This document shows, one piece after another, positions 41,673-49,132 of a DNA stretch of 61,890 nucleotides. The notes under the pieces were generated by a model. That model made no database searches and was not told the DNA's origin. It saw only the letters and a list, made by a program, of their open reading frames with translations. Every line of letters starts with the position of its first letter. The first letter of the stretch is position 1. The stretch comes from Bacillota bacterium. GTDB lineage: Bacteria > Bacillota > Dethiobacteria > DTU022. The position numbers were made by a program, and so were the translations under genes. The DNA is taken from the NCBI GenBank assembly GCA_012800855.1, contig JAAZIN010000137.1, forward strand, positions 1 to 61,890. Direction: 5' to 3'.

Positions 41673-41741
41673 CCGGGAGCCAAAGCCGCCGTCCTCCAGG
41701 GGGACTTTTTTAGCCCTTCATAGCAATGCAGCTTTTCCGAG

Positions 41742-41785
41742 AAAACGGTATAGCCATGATTCGAGGCCATGCCGTTTTTTATTTT
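41742..41785 (+). terminator. intrinsic terminator after hfq
   Basis: 10-bp stem CGGTATAGCC/GGCCATGCCG (41746-41755 / 41765-41774; one mismatch, one GU), then TTTTTTATTTT. Weaker hairpin+T6 candidates lie at ~41689-41710 and ~41787-41818. Confidence 0.7.
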
Positions 41786-41846
41786 GGGCCCGCTTCAGAG
41801 GGGGAAGGGGGCTTTTTTCTTTTTCTCTGCCAAAAGGGCTTTGATT

Positions 41847-41876
41847 TTGCCAAGATGAAATATTATATGGTATATT
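41847..41876 (+). promoter_or_regulatory. promoter-like site for the PII/DUF1538 unit
   Basis: TTGCCA (41847-41852), 18 bp, then TGgTATATT (extended -10; hexamer 41871-41876). Confidence 0.45.
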
Positions 41877-41971
41877 ATATTAGCTGGTAGTAAGCATCCG
41901 GGTAGAAGCTGCTATATCCCTGCAAAAAATATTTATCCGCCAAAAAGATATTCGGAAAGTGGGAAGCGCTC

Positions 41972-42640
41972 ATGGAAGCCATATTTTTTGCCGTTGTCAA
42001 CAGGGGCAAAGCCAATGCCGTCTTGCACAAAGCCCAGGAATACGGAGCCCGGGGAGGCACCATCTTCCTCGGCGAAGGAACGGTTCACTCCAGGCTCCTG
42101 GAGCAGATCGGCCTGGACGAATCGCATAAGGAAATTTTGATGATACCCGCCTCCAGGCAGCTCTGCCGCAAGCTGCACGACATGGTGTGCCGGGAATTCA
42201 TGTTCACCAAGAGGAACAGGGGCATCGCCTTCACCATACCCTTCCGGCGCCGGACGCTGCAGGAATCAGGGGTGAAGCCGGAAAGCCCTGCGGGAGGTGC
42301 CGCTCCTGCCTATTCCTGCATCATAACCATCGTGGACAAGGAACGCGGCAAGGATTGCCTCAAGGCAGCCTGGGCTGCGGGGGCCAGGGGAGGCACTCTC
42401 GTTCACGGCCGGGGGGCCGGTGTACCCACGGAATTTTATTACCCGCTGGTCATAGAGCCGCAGAAGGACATTATCATCATCATTGCCCCCCGGGAAAAAG
42501 CCGCTCCCATCAAAGAACGGATCGCTTCGGAGCTGGAGCTTGAAAAGCCTGGCAAGGGGATCCTCTTTATTTTGCCGGTGCTCCAGACAAGCGGCCTTTT
42601 TGAAAATGAGCCCGGGGATCAGGGAGGTGTGGCCTCGTGA
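41972..42640 (+). CDS. tandem double PII-like (GlnB-superfamily-like) protein
   Basis: 222 aa with an internal duplication: VVNRGKANAVLHKAQEYGARGGTIFLGEGT and IVDKERGKDCLKAAWAAGARGGTLVHGRGAG. Resembles the PII beta-alpha-beta plus T-loop base. Confidence 0.65.
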   Translation: MEAIFFAVVNRGKANAVLHKAQEYGARGGTIFLGEGTVHSRLLEQIGLDESHKEILMIPASRQLCRKLHDMVCREFMFTKRNRGIAFTIPFRRRTLQESGVKPESPAGGAAPAYSCIITIVDKERGKDCLKAAWAAGARGGTLVHGRGAGVPTEFYYPLVIEPQKDIIIIIAPREKAAPIKERIASELELEKPGKGILFILPVLQTSGLFENEPGDQGGVAS

Positions 42641-44493
42641 GCCTGCTGGCGGAAAAGGCAAAAGATGTCACCCGGACCCTGCTGCCCGTGGTCATCCTGG
42701 TGCTGCTGCTCTGCCTCACTATAGTGGATGTGGAAGCCGGCGTATTCATCCGCTTTCTGGTGGGCAGCGCCATGCTCCTGGTGGGGCTCTCCATCTTCCT
42801 GTGGGGCGTGGAATTGGCTATGAACCCCATTGGCGAGCACATGTCCCGGGAGATCGCCACCTCCAGAACACCCTTGAAGATCGCCCTCCTCGGCTTCCTG
42901 CTGGGCTTCTTAATCACCGTGGCCGAGCCGGATCTGCTTGTTCTCGGCTACCAGATCGAGGCCGCCTCCGGGGGCGCCCTGAGCGCCTCGGTGATTGTAT
43001 ACATGGTTTCAATAGGCGTGGGCGTCTTGGTTTCGCTGGGCATCTTCAGGCTCCTGGGCGACATGCCCTTTAACCGCTTCATGCTCATAACATATGTCAT
43101 CATTTTTATCCTGTCCGCCTTTGTCTCGGAGGAATTCATGGCCATATCTTTTGACGCCTCCGGCGCCACTACCGGCGCGCTGACCACTCCCTTCGTTTTG
43201 GCCATATCGCTGGGGCTGGCCAACATAAAGGGCGGGCGCCACACGGAAGAGAATGCCTTCGGCCTTGTGGGCATCATGAGCGCCGGGCCCATCCTGGCGG
43301 TGATGCTTCTCTCCGTTCTAACCGAGCAGAAAAACATTGCCAGCGTCGAAATTGACGTTGGTGTGGCCGAGGGCGTGCTTGGACCCATACTGGACGCTCT
43401 CCCGTCAATCTTCGTCGAATCCATTGTCGCTCTATTACCGATAACCCTTCTCTTTTTCATATTCAATTTTACCAGGTTCAAAATCTCCCGCGACGAGCTA
43501 TCCAGGATCATCAAGGGGCTTCTCCTGATCCTGGCGGGGCTTGTTCTTTTTCTTACCGCCACCGCCTCCGGCTTTATGGACATGGGCCGCATTATGGGCA
43601 TGGAGCTCGCCGGGATGAGCAGATGGCTGCTCATCGGGATAGGCTTTCTCATGGGGCTGATTGTCGTTCTGGTGGAACCCGCCGTTCACGTCCTGGGCCA
43701 GCAAATAGAAGAGGTTACCAGCGGCCACATACCCCTCAATCTCATTCGCATCACCCTCTCCATCGGCGTGGGGCTGGCCATCGCCCTCTCCATGGTCCGC
43801 ATTGTCATCCCCGAGGTTAAACTGTGGTATTTCATCATTCCAGGCTTTGCCCTCGCCCTGGTGCTCTCCTTTGTATCCGAACCCATATTTGTGGGGATCG
43901 CCTTTGACGCCGGCGGAGTGGCCTCGGGCCCAATGACGGCCACCTTTGTCCTGGCATTCGCCCAGGGAGCGGCCACGGTCATAGAGACGGCCGATGTCAT
44001 GATTGACGGCTTCGGGGTCATCGCCATGGTGGCGATGGCGCCGGTCTTCTCCCTCATGGTTTTGGGCACCCTGTTCAGGCATGCCCGGGTGGAATTCCCC
44101 TCCCGCAAGGAGAAGGAGGCGCCTTCTCTCCCGCCGGAGGAGGAACTTCAGCACAACTGTATCATGGTCATCGTAAACCGGGGCTTTGCGGAAAGCGTCG
44201 TCGACGCCGCCCGCCTTGCCGGGGCCACGGGAGCGACCATCATCCGTGGGAGGGGGACGCAGGAGGATCACAAGGTCGTCCTGCCCATTATCCACGTGGA
44301 GCTGCAGCCCGAGCGGGAGATTGTCCTGTTAATCACCGGGGCCCACCTCAGCGAGCAAATCGCTGACAACTTGCTGGCCGACCCCCTGCTGGTCCGGGAA
44401 GGAGAGATGGCCGTGTTCATGGTCCCCACGGAGGCCCTGGTGAAGATCCCCGAGCAGGATGCGCCTCCCGGCGGCGCCTCTTCCGGGACCTGA
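42637..44493 (+). CDS. fused 2x DUF1538 polytopic membrane protein with C-terminal PII-like domain
   Basis: 618 aa. The two halves share AEPDLLVLGYQIE/VEPAVHVLGQQIE and SFDASGATTGALTTPFVLA/AFDAGGVASGPMTATFVLA. C-terminal module is IVNRGFAESVVDAARLAGATGATIIRGRGTQ. GTG start overlaps the upstream stop. Confidence 0.7.
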   Translation: MSLLAEKAKDVTRTLLPVVILVLLLCLTIVDVEAGVFIRFLVGSAMLLVGLSIFLWGVELAMNPIGEHMSREIATSRTPLKIALLGFLLGFLITVAEPDLLVLGYQIEAASGGALSASVIVYMVSIGVGVLVSLGIFRLLGDMPFNRFMLITYVIIFILSAFVSEEFMAISFDASGATTGALTTPFVLAISLGLANIKGGRHTEENAFGLVGIMSAGPILAVMLLSVLTEQKNIASVEIDVGVAEGVLGPILDALPSIFVESIVALLPITLLFFIFNFTRFKISRDELSRIIKGLLLILAGLVLFLTATASGFMDMGRIMGMELAGMSRWLLIGIGFLMGLIVVLVEPAVHVLGQQIEEVTSGHIPLNLIRITLSIGVGLAIALSMVRIVIPEVKLWYFIIPGFALALVLSFVSEPIFVGIAFDAGGVASGPMTATFVLAFAQGAATVIETADVMIDGFGVIAMVAMAPVFSLMVLGTLFRHARVEFPSRKEKEAPSLPPEEELQHNCIMVIVNRGFAESVVDAARLAGATGATIIRGRGTQEDHKVVLPIIHVELQPEREIVLLITGAHLSEQIADNLLADPLLVREGEMAVFMVPTEALVKIPEQDAPPGGASSGT

Positions 44494-44562
44494 TATCACC
44501 ATCCCATCCTGGCGGCGCATGCCGAGGGATATTCGACATAACGAGCAGCGACCATTTTATAA

Positions 44563-44587
44563 GGCACCGCTTCCGGTGTTTTTTTTT
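44563..44587 (+). terminator. intrinsic terminator after the DUF1538 gene
   Basis: Stem CACCG/CGGTG (44565-44569 / 44574-44578) followed by T9. Confidence 0.6.
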
Positions 44588-44672
44588 ACGTCTTCTATTG
44601 CTTTCTCATTTTTTCCCGGCGGTGCGTATACTGGTACAGTGCACTGAAAGGCGAAGGGGAGGAGAGGGCGGC

Positions 44673-45617
44673 ATGTACCTTCTTTCCAGGCAGCCGCCTG
44701 AGCCCTTTGACAGCCACCTGTGGCGAAAGATAGAACGCGGCGAACTGGGGACGCTGGAGGCGCTGCAGCGGATGGGAGGGCTGCGGCGCGAGGGGCGGCA
44801 AAGCGACAGTGCCGCGGCGGCGGCGCTGTGGGAGCTGAAGCAGCTTGTAGGGCTGTCCGAGGTGAAGCAGGTTGTGGAGGAGATCAAGGCCTACATCGAG
44901 ATCGGGGCACAGAGAGCCGCCCACCATCTCAAGTGCGAGCAACTGGTATGGCACATGATTTTCAGCGGGAACCCGGGAACGGGAAAAACCACGGTGGCGC
45001 GGCTCCTGGGCAAACTGTTCAAAGGCCTGGGATTGCTGGAGCGGGGCCACCTGGTGGAAGTGGAGCGCGCGGACCTGGTGGGCGAATATATCGGCCATAC
45101 GGCCCAGAAGACGCGGGAGCAGATCCAGAAAGCCATGGGCGGCGTTCTCTTTGTCGATGAAGCCTATTCGCTGGGGCGGGGCGGCGAGAAAGACTTCGGC
45201 AAGGAGGCCATTGACGTGCTGGTAAAGGCGATGGAAGATCATCGCCACGAGTTCATTCTCATCCTCGCCGGCTATCGCCGGGAGATGGCCGCATTCCTGC
45301 GGCTGAACCCGGGGTTGAGCTCCCGCTTTCCCATACAGATTGACTTCCCCGACTACAGCGTGGTGGAGCTGCTGGAGATCGCCGAGATGATGGCGCAGCA
45401 GCGCCACTACAGCCTCTCACCTGAGGCCAGGAGAAGGCTGCAGCGCTACCTGGCGGAGCGGAAGGGCGATCTGAATTTCAGCAACGCCCGCCTGGTGCGT
45501 AACATCCTGGAAAAATCCATCCGGCGGCAGGCGGTGCGCCTGAGCAAAAAAGAGCGGCTCACTCGAGAGGAGCTCATCACCATCGAGGAAGCCGACCTGG
45601 CGGTGGAGGAGCGGTGA
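44673..45617 (+). CDS. spoVK: stage V sporulation protein K-type AAA+ ATPase (CbbX-like)
   Basis: ..LVGLSEVKQVVEEIKAYIEI..MIFSGNPGTGKTTVARLLGKLF..VLFVDEAYSL... ATG 44673 follows GGAGAGGG. Confidence 0.85.
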   Translation: MYLLSRQPPEPFDSHLWRKIERGELGTLEALQRMGGLRREGRQSDSAAAAALWELKQLVGLSEVKQVVEEIKAYIEIGAQRAAHHLKCEQLVWHMIFSGNPGTGKTTVARLLGKLFKGLGLLERGHLVEVERADLVGEYIGHTAQKTREQIQKAMGGVLFVDEAYSLGRGGEKDFGKEAIDVLVKAMEDHRHEFILILAGYRREMAAFLRLNPGLSSRFPIQIDFPDYSVVELLEIAEMMAQQRHYSLSPEARRRLQRYLAERKGDLNFSNARLVRNILEKSIRRQAVRLSKKERLTREELITIEEADLAVEER

Positions 45618-46234
45618 CCCTGACCATAGCCGTTGTGGGCGCGGCCCGGGTGGGGAAAACCCTTTTCTGCATCAATTTCGCCGAGTACCTGGGCGCCCGC
45701 AGCCTGAGCTACATCGAATGCGGCAGCGCGGGGGAGGGGCGGGGAACGCTTTCGCCGGCCGCGGCCAGGGAGATGATGGTCCATCGCGGGCGGCGCAGCG
45801 GCGCGGTGGTGCGCACTTTCACCGTGCACCTGTCGCCGCGGCAGACGTGGCGGCGCATTGCCCTCATTGACACCGCCTCGCTGGTAGAGAAGAAGCCGCT
45901 GACGCGCGCGGCGCGAACTGCCCTTCTGCTGACCCTGCAGGCGATTCACAGCGCCGCGGCGGTCCTGCAGCTGGTCGATCTCAGCTGCCACGATCCCGCA
46001 CGCCGCGAATTTGACGACGCCGTGTGGAGGCATCTTGCCGACTACTGCCGGGAACAGGGAAAACTCTTTTTAACCGCCGGCAGCAAGGCCGACCTCTATG
46101 ACGGCTCCCTGCAAGCGCCGTTTGCAAGCACGGAGAAGATGGTCTTTATCTCCTCCCTGACCCGCGCCGGCTTCCCCAGGCTGCAGCGCTGCCTCCTGGG
46201 GGCAGTGGGGCCGTCAGCCCAGGAGATGAAATAA
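45614..46234 (+). CDS. hypothetical P-loop protein with degenerate small-GTPase motifs
   Basis: GTG overlaps the spoVK TGA. G1 is GAARVGKT, G3-like LIDTAS, G4-like GSKADL, G5-like ISSL. Confidence 0.55.
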   Translation: MTLTIAVVGAARVGKTLFCINFAEYLGARSLSYIECGSAGEGRGTLSPAAAREMMVHRGRRSGAVVRTFTVHLSPRQTWRRIALIDTASLVEKKPLTRAARTALLLTLQAIHSAAAVLQLVDLSCHDPARREFDDAVWRHLADYCREQGKLFLTAGSKADLYDGSLQAPFASTEKMVFISSLTRAGFPRLQRCLLGAVGPSAQEMK

Positions 46235-46540
46235 GGCCGCCATGACGGCTATCCCCACGAGCAGGGTGAGAAAGATGCTACGGGTAATTAGGCCCGCGGC
46301 AAAGGTGGGGAGGGCGGCCCAGAGGTAGAGGTTCTCCCGGCTCAGTTCAAGGGAGCCGTTGGGGGCGAGAATGCTTACGGCGGCAAGGGCGCCGAGGACG
46401 GCGGGGGCGACGTAGGAGAGCCACTTCTCGAGCCAGGGCGGCATTTTGCGGCGCGAGAAGATGGCCACGGGTAGGATGCGCGGGGCCAGGCTAACCAGCG
46501 CCACGCCGAAAATCATGAGCCAGGCATCAGCGGCGTTCAT
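46214..46540 (-). CDS. azlD: branched-chain amino acid exporter small subunit AzlD
   Basis: MNAADAWLMIFGVALVSLAPRILPVAIF.. is a typical AzlD N-terminus. Start ATG 46540 overlaps the azlC stop. Confidence 0.75.
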   Translation of the reverse strand: MNAADAWLMIFGVALVSLAPRILPVAIFSRRKMPPWLEKWLSYVAPAVLGALAAVSILAPNGSLELSRENLYLWAALPTFAAGLITRSIFLTLLVGIAVMAALFHLLG

Positions 46541-47219
46541 CCCAAATGACCCCCAGGGTGGCGCCGACAAGGGTTGCGGCGATGATGTTGAATTTATTGG
46601 CCATGGTGGAGGGGAAGAGCTGCCCCACCAGGAGCGCGGTGCAGGCGGCGGCGAGGGCGGCGTAGATATGGGAGCGGCGCCGCAGCAGGATGATGAGCAG
46701 CGAGATGTACATGGCCGGGAGGGCGAAGTTCAATCCCAGGCGGTCGGTGCTGGAAATGAAGCTGCCCAGGAGGGCCCCGGCAAGGGTGCTGCCAATCCAG
46801 CCCAGGTGGGAGCAGGCCACCAGGGCGGCAAGATAGGGCGTGGCAGCCGGGTGCCTCCGGTAACGGTTCATGGATACGGCGTAAACCTCGTCGGTAAGCC
46901 CGTAGGATAGGGCGGCGGCGAGGGCGGGAGGGATTCTCTCCCTTAAATAGGGCACCGTGGAGGCGGCAAAAAGGGCGTAGCGCAAGTTGACGAGTAGATT
47001 GGTGAGGATGATGGCTATGAGGGAGCCGCCGGCCTTGAACATCCCCGCGGCAATGAACTGCCCGGCCCCGGTGAAGCAAAGAACAGACATGGCCACGGCC
47101 TGTAGAAGGGAGAGGCCTGCGTCCCTGGCCAGCACGCCAAAGGTGAAGCCCAGCGGCAGGTAGCCCAGGATGATGGGAAATGAGTCTTTAAAGCCCTGCT
47201 TCAGCTCTTGCGTGTTCAT
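46527..47219 (-). CDS. azlC: AzlC-family branched-chain amino acid exporter subunit
   Basis: ..FKDSFPIILGYLPLGFTFGVLA..LCFTGAGQFIAAGM.. Confidence 0.8.
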   Translation of the reverse strand: MNTQELKQGFKDSFPIILGYLPLGFTFGVLARDAGLSLLQAVAMSVLCFTGAGQFIAAGMFKAGGSLIAIILTNLLVNLRYALFAASTVPYLRERIPPALAAALSYGLTDEVYAVSMNRYRRHPAATPYLAALVACSHLGWIGSTLAGALLGSFISSTDRLGLNFALPAMYISLLIILLRRRSHIYAALAAACTALLVGQLFPSTMANKFNIIAATLVGATLGVIWDERR

Positions 47220-47452: not shown

Positions 47453-49132
47453 ATGCTCCTGGGGATAGACGTGGGGGGCACCTCCACCGACGGGGTGCTC
47501 ATCTGTGACGGATGCCTGGAAAAAAGCGTAAAGAAGCAGCACCGCGGCGATCTGACGGAGAGCATCCTAAAGGTGCTGGACGAGCTTCTGGAGGGGCGGG
47601 AGGCGGTGAAGGTGCAGCGCCTTGTCATCAGCACCACGCTGGTGACAAACCTGCTGGCCACGCGGAACGGCGCCCGGACGGCGCTCATTCTCATCCCCGG
47701 CCGCGGGCTTCCCTTCAGCTTTTACCGGATTGCTCCGGACACCTACTTTCTCAAGGGCAGCATTGACTTCAGGGGCAATATTACCGAGGAGACCCCACAA
47801 GAGGATATCCTTGCCGCCATTGAAGACATAAAAACGAAGGGCATCCGCCACATTGCCGTGGCGGCCAAGTTTTCCCACCGCAACCGCAGCCTGGAGCAGG
47901 AGGTGGCCCGGGCCATCCGCGAGCGCTGCCCCGAGGCGATGGTCACCCTGGGCAGCGAAACGGCGGATCGCCTCAACTTCCCCCGCCGGGCGGCCACGGC
48001 CTACTACAGCGCCATGACCGCCCCGCAGTGGAACGAGTTTGCCTCCTGCGTCGAGGAGGCGGTGCGGCAGCGCGGCCTGGCCGCTCCCGTGGAGATCCTC
48101 AAGGCCGACGGGGGAACCATGCCGCTGGAGGTGTCGCGGCAGAGGCCGCTGGAGACGGCCTACTCGGGACCGGCGGCCAGCACCATGGGCGCGGTGGCGC
48201 TAAGCCCCCGCCGGGAGAATGCGGTGATGATCGACATCGGGGGAACCACCTCCGATATCGCCCTGCTCATTGAAGGCGAGCCGCTGCACGCCTCCCGCGG
48301 CGCCTGCATTGACGGCTGCTTTACCCATATCAACGCCCTGGCCCTGCGCTCGATGGCGCTGGGCGGCGACAGCGCCTTACAGGCCCGGGAGGGGCGGCTG
48401 GAGATATCCGCGAAGCGTCTGGGGCCGGCGGCCTGCTTCGGCGGCCCTGCGCCCACGGTTACCGATGCCTTCAACTGTTACCATTCTCTGGCCCTGGGCG
48501 ATGCGGCGCGCAGCCAGGCGGCGCTGGCCGGGCTCGCAGCATCGCTCCACATGGCGCCGCAGGAGCTTGCCGCAGCCGTGGTGGAGCAGGTGCTCTCAAG
48601 GCTGCAGGCCCTCATCGAGGGGATGTTCCGCGAATGGGAAAACGAGCCCGCCTACAAGGTTTGGGAGATCGTGCACCGGCGCAAGTTCAAGCTGGAGCGG
48701 CTCATCGGGATCGGCGGGGCGGCGGAGATGATCGTGCCGCAGCTGGCGAAGAGGATGGGGGTCCCCTTTACCGTACACCGCCTCTCCCCGGTGGCCAACG
48801 CCCTCGGCGCGGCGGTGGCGCGGCCCACATTGTCGCTCCATCTTTATGCCGACACGCAGCAGAAGCGCTTTGTCATTGACCAGGAGGGGATTGAAGGGAC
48901 CATCCCCAACCCCGCCACGTTCCAGCTTGCCGATGCCGAAGCGCTGGCCCTGGAGCAGCTGGCCCGCCTGGCTGAGGAGAAGGGAGCGGGCTGCTACGCC
49001 AAAGAGTCGCGCGTGGAGCTGGCGGAGCAGTTCAACATGATCCGTGGCTGGAGCAGGGTGGGGAAGATATTCCAGGTGAGGGTGCAGATAGCGCCCGGCC
49101 TGATCAAGGAATTCAAGGGGGTGGGCGCATGA
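47453..49132 (+). CDS. hydantoinase A/oxoprolinase-family (ASKHA-fold) protein, no HyuB partner
   Basis: MLLGIDVGGTSTDGVL..IDIGGTTSDIALL.. are hydantoinase_A-type motifs. 559 aa. Confidence 0.75.
   Translation: MLLGIDVGGTSTDGVLICDGCLEKSVKKQHRGDLTESILKVLDELLEGREAVKVQRLVISTTLVTNLLATRNGARTALILIPGRGLPFSFYRIAPDTYFLKGSIDFRGNITEETPQEDILAAIEDIKTKGIRHIAVAAKFSHRNRSLEQEVARAIRERCPEAMVTLGSETADRLNFPRRAATAYYSAMTAPQWNEFASCVEEAVRQRGLAAPVEILKADGGTMPLEVSRQRPLETAYSGPAASTMGAVALSPRRENAVMIDIGGTTSDIALLIEGEPLHASRGACIDGCFTHINALALRSMALGGDSALQAREGRLEISAKRLGPAACFGGPAPTVTDAFNCYHSLALGDAARSQAALAGLAASLHMAPQELAAAVVEQVLSRLQALIEGMFREWENEPAYKVWEIVHRRKFKLERLIGIGGAAEMIVPQLAKRMGVPFTVHRLSPVANALGAAVARPTLSLHLYADTQQKRFVIDQEGIEGTIPNPATFQLADAEALALEQLARLAEEKGAGCYAKESRVELAEQFNMIRGWSRVGKIFQVRVQIAPGLIKEFKGVGA

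Follow-up and report, generated by a model that had tools for sequence, protein, structure and literature searches.

Why should a two-gene unit encode three modules that resemble PII, one of the most widespread kinds of metabolic sensor, together with a membrane protein of the little-studied DUF1538 family? The unit (genes at 41972–44493, forward strand) lies in DNA of a Bacillota bacterium (GTDB lineage Bacteria; Bacillota; Dethiobacteria; DTU022), on contig JAAZIN010000137.1 of assembly GCA_012800855.1, positions 1 to 61,890 of which, the whole stretch of 61,890 nucleotides (nt) that was analysed, are here called the window. In its canonical form a PII protein is a homotrimer and docks on a transporter that is trimeric too (AmtB, SbtA), with GlnK acting on AmtB and SbtB on SbtA from the cytoplasmic side, and to our knowledge only a few membrane targets of PII proteins, chiefly these two, are understood. 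The answer favored here, which we hold to be likely rather than assured, is that the two genes form an operon for an ion-coupled secondary transporter of the DUF1538 family with a PII-like regulatory apparatus of its own. The unit is probably a case of a transporter from a little-studied family being gated by a metabolic sensor, and one that is undescribed in the literature searched.

Two overlapping genes

Gene 1 (41972–42640, ATG start) specifies a soluble protein of 222 amino acids and gene 2 (42637–44493, GTG start) one of 618 amino acids. They are translationally coupled: the four nt GTGA at 42637–42640 hold the stop of gene 1 (TGA, 42638–42640) as well as the GTG with which gene 2 begins (42637–42639), with the Shine-Dalgarno sequence AGGGAGGTG just 5' of that start. 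Gene 1 is a tandem of two PII-like modules, M1 (amino acids 1–106; 41972–42289), the most divergent of the three, and M2 (amino acids 112–222; 42305–42637), the most canonical. The protein from gene 2 starts with two DUF1538 halves, D1 (amino acids 1–245; 42637–43371) and D2 (amino acids 258–500; 43408–44136), and the third module, M3 (amino acids 505–605; 44149–44451), follows these on a disordered tether about 24 residues long. The initial annotation, which had been made from the letters alone, gave both genes with their overlap, quoted a peptide from each of the three modules and two motifs from the membrane halves, and took the former for PII-like and the latter for DUF1538. The open reading frame (ORF) list agrees on the genes, all of the peptides and motifs are present in the translations, and both family assignments are upheld by the searches described below.

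The three PII-like modules

Are modules that are mutually only 25–28% identical of one kind, and is that kind PII? Profile hidden Markov models were built from homologues of M1, M2, M3, D1 and D2, and when these were compared with hhalign, M1 and M2 matched at 98.2%, M2 and M3 at 99.4%, and M1 and M3 at 96.6%, with 0.6% for M1 against D1 as the control. The Pfam P-II model (PF00543) recognizes M2 with E 1e-7 and 32.7 bits, over its cutoff of 25, and gives M3 15.9 bits, which is under that cutoff; a Pfam search with M1 yielded no match. Twenty solved PII proteins are matched by the M2 profile, from E 1.9e-5, and the best solved match of both the M1 and the M3 profiles is NifI1 (PDB 9p1x; 9p1x_H for M1), with E 0.005 and 7e-4, respectively. 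M1 and M3 are tied to the PII family via their profile-profile links to M2 along with these weak matches to NifI1.

The modelled structures point the same way. The two proteins were modelled separately, as monomers, with AlphaFold2 (AF2). The model of gene 1 (predicted local distance difference test, pLDDT, 80.1; predicted template modelling score, pTM, 0.78) consists of two beta-alpha-beta-beta-alpha-beta modules in which the T-loop-like segments are of low confidence, and that of gene 2 (pLDDT 75.3, pTM 0.71) has eighteen helices followed by another such module, residues 483–502 of the linker ahead of it being disordered (pLDDT <50). In the predicted structures of all three modules the elements come in the order of the PII fold, with the T-loop between beta2 and beta3 and the B-loop before beta4. 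The top 50 Foldseek matches of the gene 2 model all fall on M3 and include SbtB (template modelling, TM, score up to 0.80), TTHA0516, CPII and GlnK, and the credible single-module matches of the gene 1 model are GlnB (2gw8, TM 0.75), SbtB (0.74) and CPII (0.63); overall the single-module matches have probability 1.00 and TM scores of 0.55–0.80. Whole-chain matches of gene 1 to chlorite dismutase, DyP, tandem ACT and BMC-T proteins (TM 0.24–0.36, root-mean-square deviation 12–18 Å) were set aside as generic ferredoxin-like repeats. Because profile matches, mutual homology and modelled folds concur, the three modules are PII-like and M2 is a bona fide member of Pfam P-II; as modelled, all three belong to the PII-like fold and superfamily.

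Several signature positions have been retained. In alignment with an Escherichia coli GlnB sequence entered by hand, G24, G27, T29, G35, G89 and F92 are found in the modules, and the motifs G-x-G-G-T and G-x-G, which line the clefts between subunits, are kept in all three. The T-loop-like segments are strongly conserved and of near-normal length.

A separate observation concerns cysteines. About 100 homologues all retain three of them: C116 (42317–42319), where beta1 of M2 begins, C129 (42356–42358), in alpha1 of that module, and C508 (44158–44160), in the corresponding place in beta1 of M3. Counterparts are absent from the single PII of the split-type operons introduced below. Judging by the alignments, a redox or metal site could be formed here.

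Conservation of the linkage

The association of PII with DUF1538 is family-wide across the loci sampled. Proteins of the gene 1 type make up at least 708 homologous clusters, of some 222–225 amino acids and called ‘P-II family nitrogen regulator’ where they have a name, and gene 2 has more than 7,700 clusters of homologues, nearly all of the best 120 being about 600–636 amino acids long. A species-level scan of genomes gave 37 loci, among which 31 are of the window type with both genes in view. All 31 have the order M1-M2 then D1-D2-M3 with gene 1 immediately upstream, and in 25 the genes overlap by NTGA.

The remainder show that the parts can be dealt out in other ways. Among the variants, which are of 35–40% identity, L030 and L032 have a fused D1-D2 gene and then the tandem PII gene, in L031 (1709–5780) a pair of D1-D2 genes comes before a PII gene that the contig end cuts, and in L033 (4349–8853) two consecutive fused double-DUF1538 genes precede three PII genes, all separate (142, 113 and 116 amino acids). 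(The first PII-like gene of L033 has lost the G-x-G-G-T motif.) Plasmid or chromid records from Paraclostridium, Peptoclostridium, Vescimonas, Acetoanaerobium and Subdoligranulum likewise have a double DUF1538 followed by a tandem P-II. In total, a fused double DUF1538 that lacks M3 and has a tandem PII gene downstream is found in nine Bacillota loci, the cut PII gene of L031 included.

In two alphaproteobacterial plasmids, from Methylocystis and Chelativorans, two separate DUF1538 genes are followed by a single P-II gene, and a metagenomic scan seeded with this split type returned 80 loci. In all of the 75 with room downstream, the second DUF1538 gene is followed at 5–33 nt by one M2-like PII gene; the five in which none is seen end within 400 nt. 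What the annotator had proposed as a linkage to be looked for is therefore both conserved and broader than was envisaged, extending over fused, tandem and split-pair loci.

Covalent fusions join the partners more firmly still. A representative library clustered at 50% identity holds Pfam-confirmed proteins with both membrane halves followed by two modules, D-D-M-M (P0260, 720 amino acids; P0262, 709 amino acids), as well as D-D-M fusions. The complete set, M-M-D-D-M, occurs in a single chain in P0196 and P0193, which are one lineage (89% identity) and are on a 219-kb biogas contig; no further case was found among the representatives clustered at 50% identity. MAFFT alignment of P0196 was unstable, with gene 1 homologues being drawn to the C-terminal PII module and the result varying with the sequence set. 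Two oddities were met in the same library: P0284 has an RsmD-like methyltransferase (PF03602) ahead of its double DUF1538, which may be an artefact of gene calling, and in P0345, a protein of 860 residues, the DUF1538 halves are separated by an insert of about 370.

The membrane domain

Pfam DUF1538 (PF07556) matches gene 2 in two stretches with E 1.4e-124, and it is the only Pfam family found on the membrane part, with no Sbt_1, no DUF2179, and no homology to Amt or SbtA. D1 and D2 are 29% identical and match each other at 99.4% in hhalign. In 27 DUF1538 domains, taken from Bacillota and Alphaproteobacteria, the residues that never vary include, for D1, E97 (42925–42927), at the ‘AEP’ helix break, D173 (43153–43155), at the ‘FDASG’ helix break, and R138, and, for D2, E347 (43675–43677), D424 (43906–43908) and R388. 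Several glycines and prolines are invariant also, and the Glu, Asp, Arg, Gly and Pro positions are kept in both halves. In the AF2 model the helices of each half are broken at these motifs (AEP and FDASG in D1, VEP and FDAGG in D2). Because of the distribution of charge in the loops, the sequence would probably adopt a topology of 7+7 helices with both termini in the cytoplasm and the halves inverted relative to each other. Buried acidic residues at breaks within inverted repeats are expected of an ion-coupled carrier, and on the model we take the invariant Glu and Asp of each half to be cation or proton binding sites.

The only characterized DUF1538 system in the literature searched is UmpAB of Halomonas zhaodongensis, a pair of DUF1538 proteins with pH-dependent Na+(Li+,K+)/H+ antiport activity that form a heterodimer by co-immunoprecipitation (PMC5484666). 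The annotation had described this system correctly as a split pair and an antiporter, and had added that it lacked a PII component. That last part stands only in so far as the UmpAB paper makes no mention of PII (PMC5484666); every sampled split-pair locus with room for one does have a PII gene directly downstream, none of these pairs being an UmpAB equivalog. The metagenomic split pairs (L045–L124) score about 80–124 bits on the NCBIfam models for UmpA (NF041627) and UmpB (NF041628), for which the equivalog cutoffs are 490 and 500. UmpAB is in consequence a narrow clade, and most of the DUF1538 family is without a characterized member. A machine-learning model of optimal growth pH has DUF1538 in its table of key pH-adaptation genes (PMC13255231). 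Searches of the literature on DUF1538, PF07556, UmpAB and PII-like transporters brought up no paper linking PII to DUF1538, two apparent leads proving to be mentions in reference lists. With NCBIfam matches at family level only, the expectation that this architecture had been assigned no function was borne out.

By analogy with UmpAB, and given the acidic intramembrane residues, the gene 2 product most likely transports, with a cation and protons as its substrates. Could it instead be a membrane-anchored sensor or signal transducer, whose PII modules are an output acting on other targets? Such has been speculated for BB0017, a YitT-family membrane protein with a C-terminal PII-like domain and a proposed role in signal transduction (PMC6516651), and transport by the clade of gene 2 is itself an argument from analogy. 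We consider this very improbable: UmpAB transports ions, a 14-helix architecture with invariant intramembrane Glu and Asp at helix breaks is typical of carriers, and no conserved downstream gene presents itself as the target.

A PII-gated carrier?

How, then, might an ion-coupled DUF1538 carrier with PII-like regulation work? Gene 2 would fuse two seven-helix halves that elsewhere, as in UmpAB, form a split pair, and these would most likely be oriented oppositely in the membrane. The invariant Glu and Asp at the helix breaks of each half would bind cation or proton, and the carrier would probably exchange a monovalent cation for protons. M3 would hang on its flexible tether from the cytoplasmic C-terminus, and gene 1, coupled to gene 2 in translation, would add M1 and M2. 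The clefts between modules would probably bind a small-molecule effector in non-canonical manner, an adenine nucleotide being the likeliest, and the conserved T-loop-like segments would lock the transporter's cytoplasmic face or set it free, as with GlnK on AmtB and SbtB on SbtA. Gating by PII, the class of effector, the topology and the oligomeric arrangement are proposals put forward here.

A number of points weigh against so full a reading. For the clade of gene 2, transport and ligand binding are argued from analogy rather than from experiment. A search of the PDB with phmmer and with profiles found no solved relative of the membrane domain, and there is no membrane protein among the top 50 Foldseek matches of the whole gene 2 model. 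Since gene 2 scores 157 bits on the UmpA model and 142 on the UmpB model, far under the equivalog cutoffs, the substrate of UmpAB is not simply transferable to it, and conserved neighbours provide no clue to one, synteny being only at the level of lineages (e.g. SbcCD-like genes). UmpAB is active in E. coli without any PII (PMC5484666), so that PII can be at most regulatory. Finally, other residues stand at the GlnB positions R38, Q39, D88, K90, R101 and R103, with a T-loop shorter by about 6 residues, and for these reasons the effector may not be ATP, ADP or 2-oxoglutarate. Judged by sequence the modules, lacking most of the ligand residues and a T-loop of full length, are not canonical GlnB or GlnK.

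The loss of the ATP and 2-oxoglutarate residues would also fit a different role, in which the modules are no allosteric sensors but a cytoplasmic cap that binds or funnels the substrate, along the lines proposed for AexB, the cargo then being something other than monovalent cations. The invariant cysteines of M2 (C116, C129) and M3 (C508) would suit this, the PII-like cap that AexB, an aromatic amino-acid exporter of the YitT/DUF2179 family (AexB/YvjA), carries on its cytoplasmic side aids transport efficiency by a mechanism that is unexplained (PMC13170310), and proteins of the CutA type, which are PII-like, bind copper and pteridines (PMC12685090). It is an unlikely role for modules of this kind: M2 is over the Pfam P-II threshold, its profile matches GlnB, GlnK and NifI and not CutA, the strongly conserved T-loop-like segments of near-normal length are typical of PII proteins that bind partners, and the one DUF1538 system to have been assayed, UmpAB, moves Na+, Li+ and K+ against H+. 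Regulation of a cation carrier by its PII-like modules remains the reading that we favor.

One ring or several?

If the modules do gate the carrier, how are they put together? The initial annotation had suggested a pseudo-heterotrimer. Spelled out, this would be a single hard-wired ring of tandem M1 and M2 with tethered M3, docked 1:1 on one fused, inverted-repeat and hence asymmetric transporter. Three distinct but homologous modules per translationally coupled operon, in all 31 window-type loci, are what such a ring would require. L033 encodes exactly three PII genes, and the P0196/P0193 lineage holds three modules and both membrane halves in one chain. NifI1, to which M1 and M3 are closest among solved sequences, provides the precedent of a 2:1 heterotrimer. 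The pTM of gene 1 points to a defined orientation between its modules, unlike that in the tandem ferredoxin-like proteins of the PDB. Moreover inverted repeats would give the transporter an asymmetric cytoplasmic face, which a differentiated ring would suit. However, orthologous M1-M2 tandems accompany M3-less double-DUF1538 proteins in the nine Bacillota loci and are even fused to them as D-D-M-M, and the split-type operons have a single PII gene. From these M3-less carriers, D-D-M-M fusions and single-PII split pairs it follows that the M1-M2 tandem must be able to assemble without M3, and as operons with one, two and three modules exist, and tandems also occur with M3-less carriers, an obligate ring of M1, M2 and M3 is not the general rule.

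The alternative keeps the symmetry of canonical PII, homotrimers on trimeric transporters: the transporter would be trimeric and each type of module would form its own homotrimeric ring, so that one, two or three modules would mean one, two or three stacked sensor layers. Of the schemes with closed trimers only this one fits every count of modules, and retention of the G-x-G-G-T and G-x-G cleft motifs in all three modules is in keeping with it. Here too there are difficulties. Nothing points to trimers of DUF1538, UmpAB having been shown only as a heterodimer by co-immunoprecipitation; three rings under one transporter are without precedent; and the gene 1 model, with pTM 0.78, predicts a defined intramolecular interface between M1 and M2. 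We rate the two arrangements about equally, each as a tentative proposal that is rather doubtful taken singly.

Expression signals and neighbouring genes

A sigma-70-type promoter-like site (41847–41876: TTGCCA, an 18-nt spacer and a TG-extended TATATT; 10/12 in a consensus scan) lies inside the 300-nt gap downstream of the hfq terminator (41691–41705), about 95 nt 5' of gene 1, and the leader between it and the gene is 41877–41971. An Rfam search of the leader for a riboswitch gave no match with E up to 1, and with a fold z-score of +1.48 it has no unusual stability. At the other end, an intrinsic-terminator-like hairpin with a T-run (44561–44589; 9 bp, 4 of them G-C), found in the consensus scan at 44561–44582 and present in the minimum-free-energy fold, begins 68 nt past the stop of gene 2. 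The promoter-like site and the hairpin were both noticed in the initial annotation and are where it had placed them. Since shuffled sequence yields matches of this sort about as often as the region does (2 found vs 1.6 expected; 5 vs 4.6), their weight is that of position only. The claim that the unit is a self-contained two-gene operon accords with the wider neighbours not being conserved; the hfq/spoVK context is common only to the closest metagenome-assembled genome (MAG), L037.

The intergenic region between hfq and the unit (41673–41846) has the hfq terminator (41691–41705 plus T6), a second, long hairpin at about 41736–41784 and then a T-run, and a third T-run near 41814–41828. Either tandem terminators or a small RNA could account for these; the region's fold z-score is only -0.76 and Rfam has no match to it. 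Downstream, the spoVK-like AAA+ ORF listed as 44598–45617 probably has its true start at ATG 44673 and not at TTG 44598, with a promoter-like site at 44603–44632 preceding that ATG, and its stop overlaps the start of a P-loop-like ORF of 206 amino acids (45614–46234), the two being adjacent in L037 also. Some 1.7 kb downstream of the unit there is an AzlD/AzlC branched-chain amino-acid exporter pair on the other strand (46214–47219), and after it a hydantoinase/oxoprolinase-like gene (47453–49132), a context that is again common only to L037.

Implications

DUF1538 pairs with dedicated PII-like modules, whether separate, tandem, tethered or fused, are present in every sampled locus, from Bacillota, Alphaproteobacteria and metagenomes. 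If gating by PII is real, a regulator has been named for a family of transporters whose members number thousands and of which one has been characterized, antiport of the UmpAB type would seem to be under energy or metabolite control, and the one-, two- and three-module operons would be a natural series in which to study the fitting of a symmetric PII trimer to an asymmetric partner. Should the hard-wired ring prove true, it would be the first heteromeric PII ring to be covalently specified and the second heteromeric PII complex after NifI1,2, and a differentiated end state of the ancestral homotrimeric PII that still accompanies split DUF1538 pairs; with AmtB-GlnK and SbtA-SbtB there would then be a third major pair of transporter and PII regulator. 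With its invariant intramembrane Glu/Asp pairs and natural fusion proteins, the system is directly testable.

Comparison with known systems

UmpAB is the nearest relative of the membrane part, with the same DUF1538 family, two homologous halves of about 7 helices that are needed together, and invariant Glu and Asp at helix breaks. The unit differs from it in having the halves fused in one chain, with scores that rule out orthology to UmpAB, and in having a PII module fused to them and a tandem PII gene coupled to them, where the UmpAB paper describes no PII.

With regard to PII control of transporters, the unit has a PII gene in a transporter operon, as is usual for such systems, but the transporter is not homologous to Amt or SbtA. 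The likeness to SbtA-SbtB consists in a PII-like gene adjoining a secondary transporter that it is thought to gate from the cytoplasm; moreover SbtB is the best structural match of M3, and both lack the canonical 2-oxoglutarate signature. However, SbtA, the cyanobacterial Na+/bicarbonate transporter, is unrelated to the DUF1538 protein, SbtB is one gene giving a homotrimer whereas the unit has three non-identical modules, two in tandem and one tethered, and the C-terminal CGPxGC redox loop of SbtB is not in those modules. AmtB-GlnK, which is regulated by insertion of the T-loop, is likewise a membrane transporter paired with an operon-encoded PII, and M2, which is over the Pfam threshold, has profile matches to GlnK and GlnB. 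There the transporter is of another family, and the T-loop of the modules described here is the shorter one and is without an equivalent of the uridylylation site; R38, Q39, K90, R101 and R103 are not conserved in these modules.

NifI1 and NifI2, which regulate methanogen nitrogenase, are non-identical PII paralogues in one 2:1 trimer (PDB 9p1x; bioRxiv 10.1101/2025.09.09.675011). Like M1, M2 and M3 they are co-encoded, and among solved sequences NifI1 comes nearest to M1 and M3, albeit with weak similarity (E 7e-4 to 5e-3). They differ in having nitrogenase as target and in being separate small subunits, neither tandem nor tethered; a heterotrimer is known for them and is only hypothetical for the modules described here. 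BB0017 and AexB/YvjA resemble gene 2 in being polytopic membrane proteins with a PII-like cytoplasmic domain covalently joined on at the C-terminus, but their membrane domain is another one (there is no DUF2179 match in gene 2), their loops are truncated and they have no soluble tandem PII partner. Membrane transport regulated by PII is thus a known kind of system; what is new is the family to which the transporter belongs and the tandem and tethered organization of the modules.

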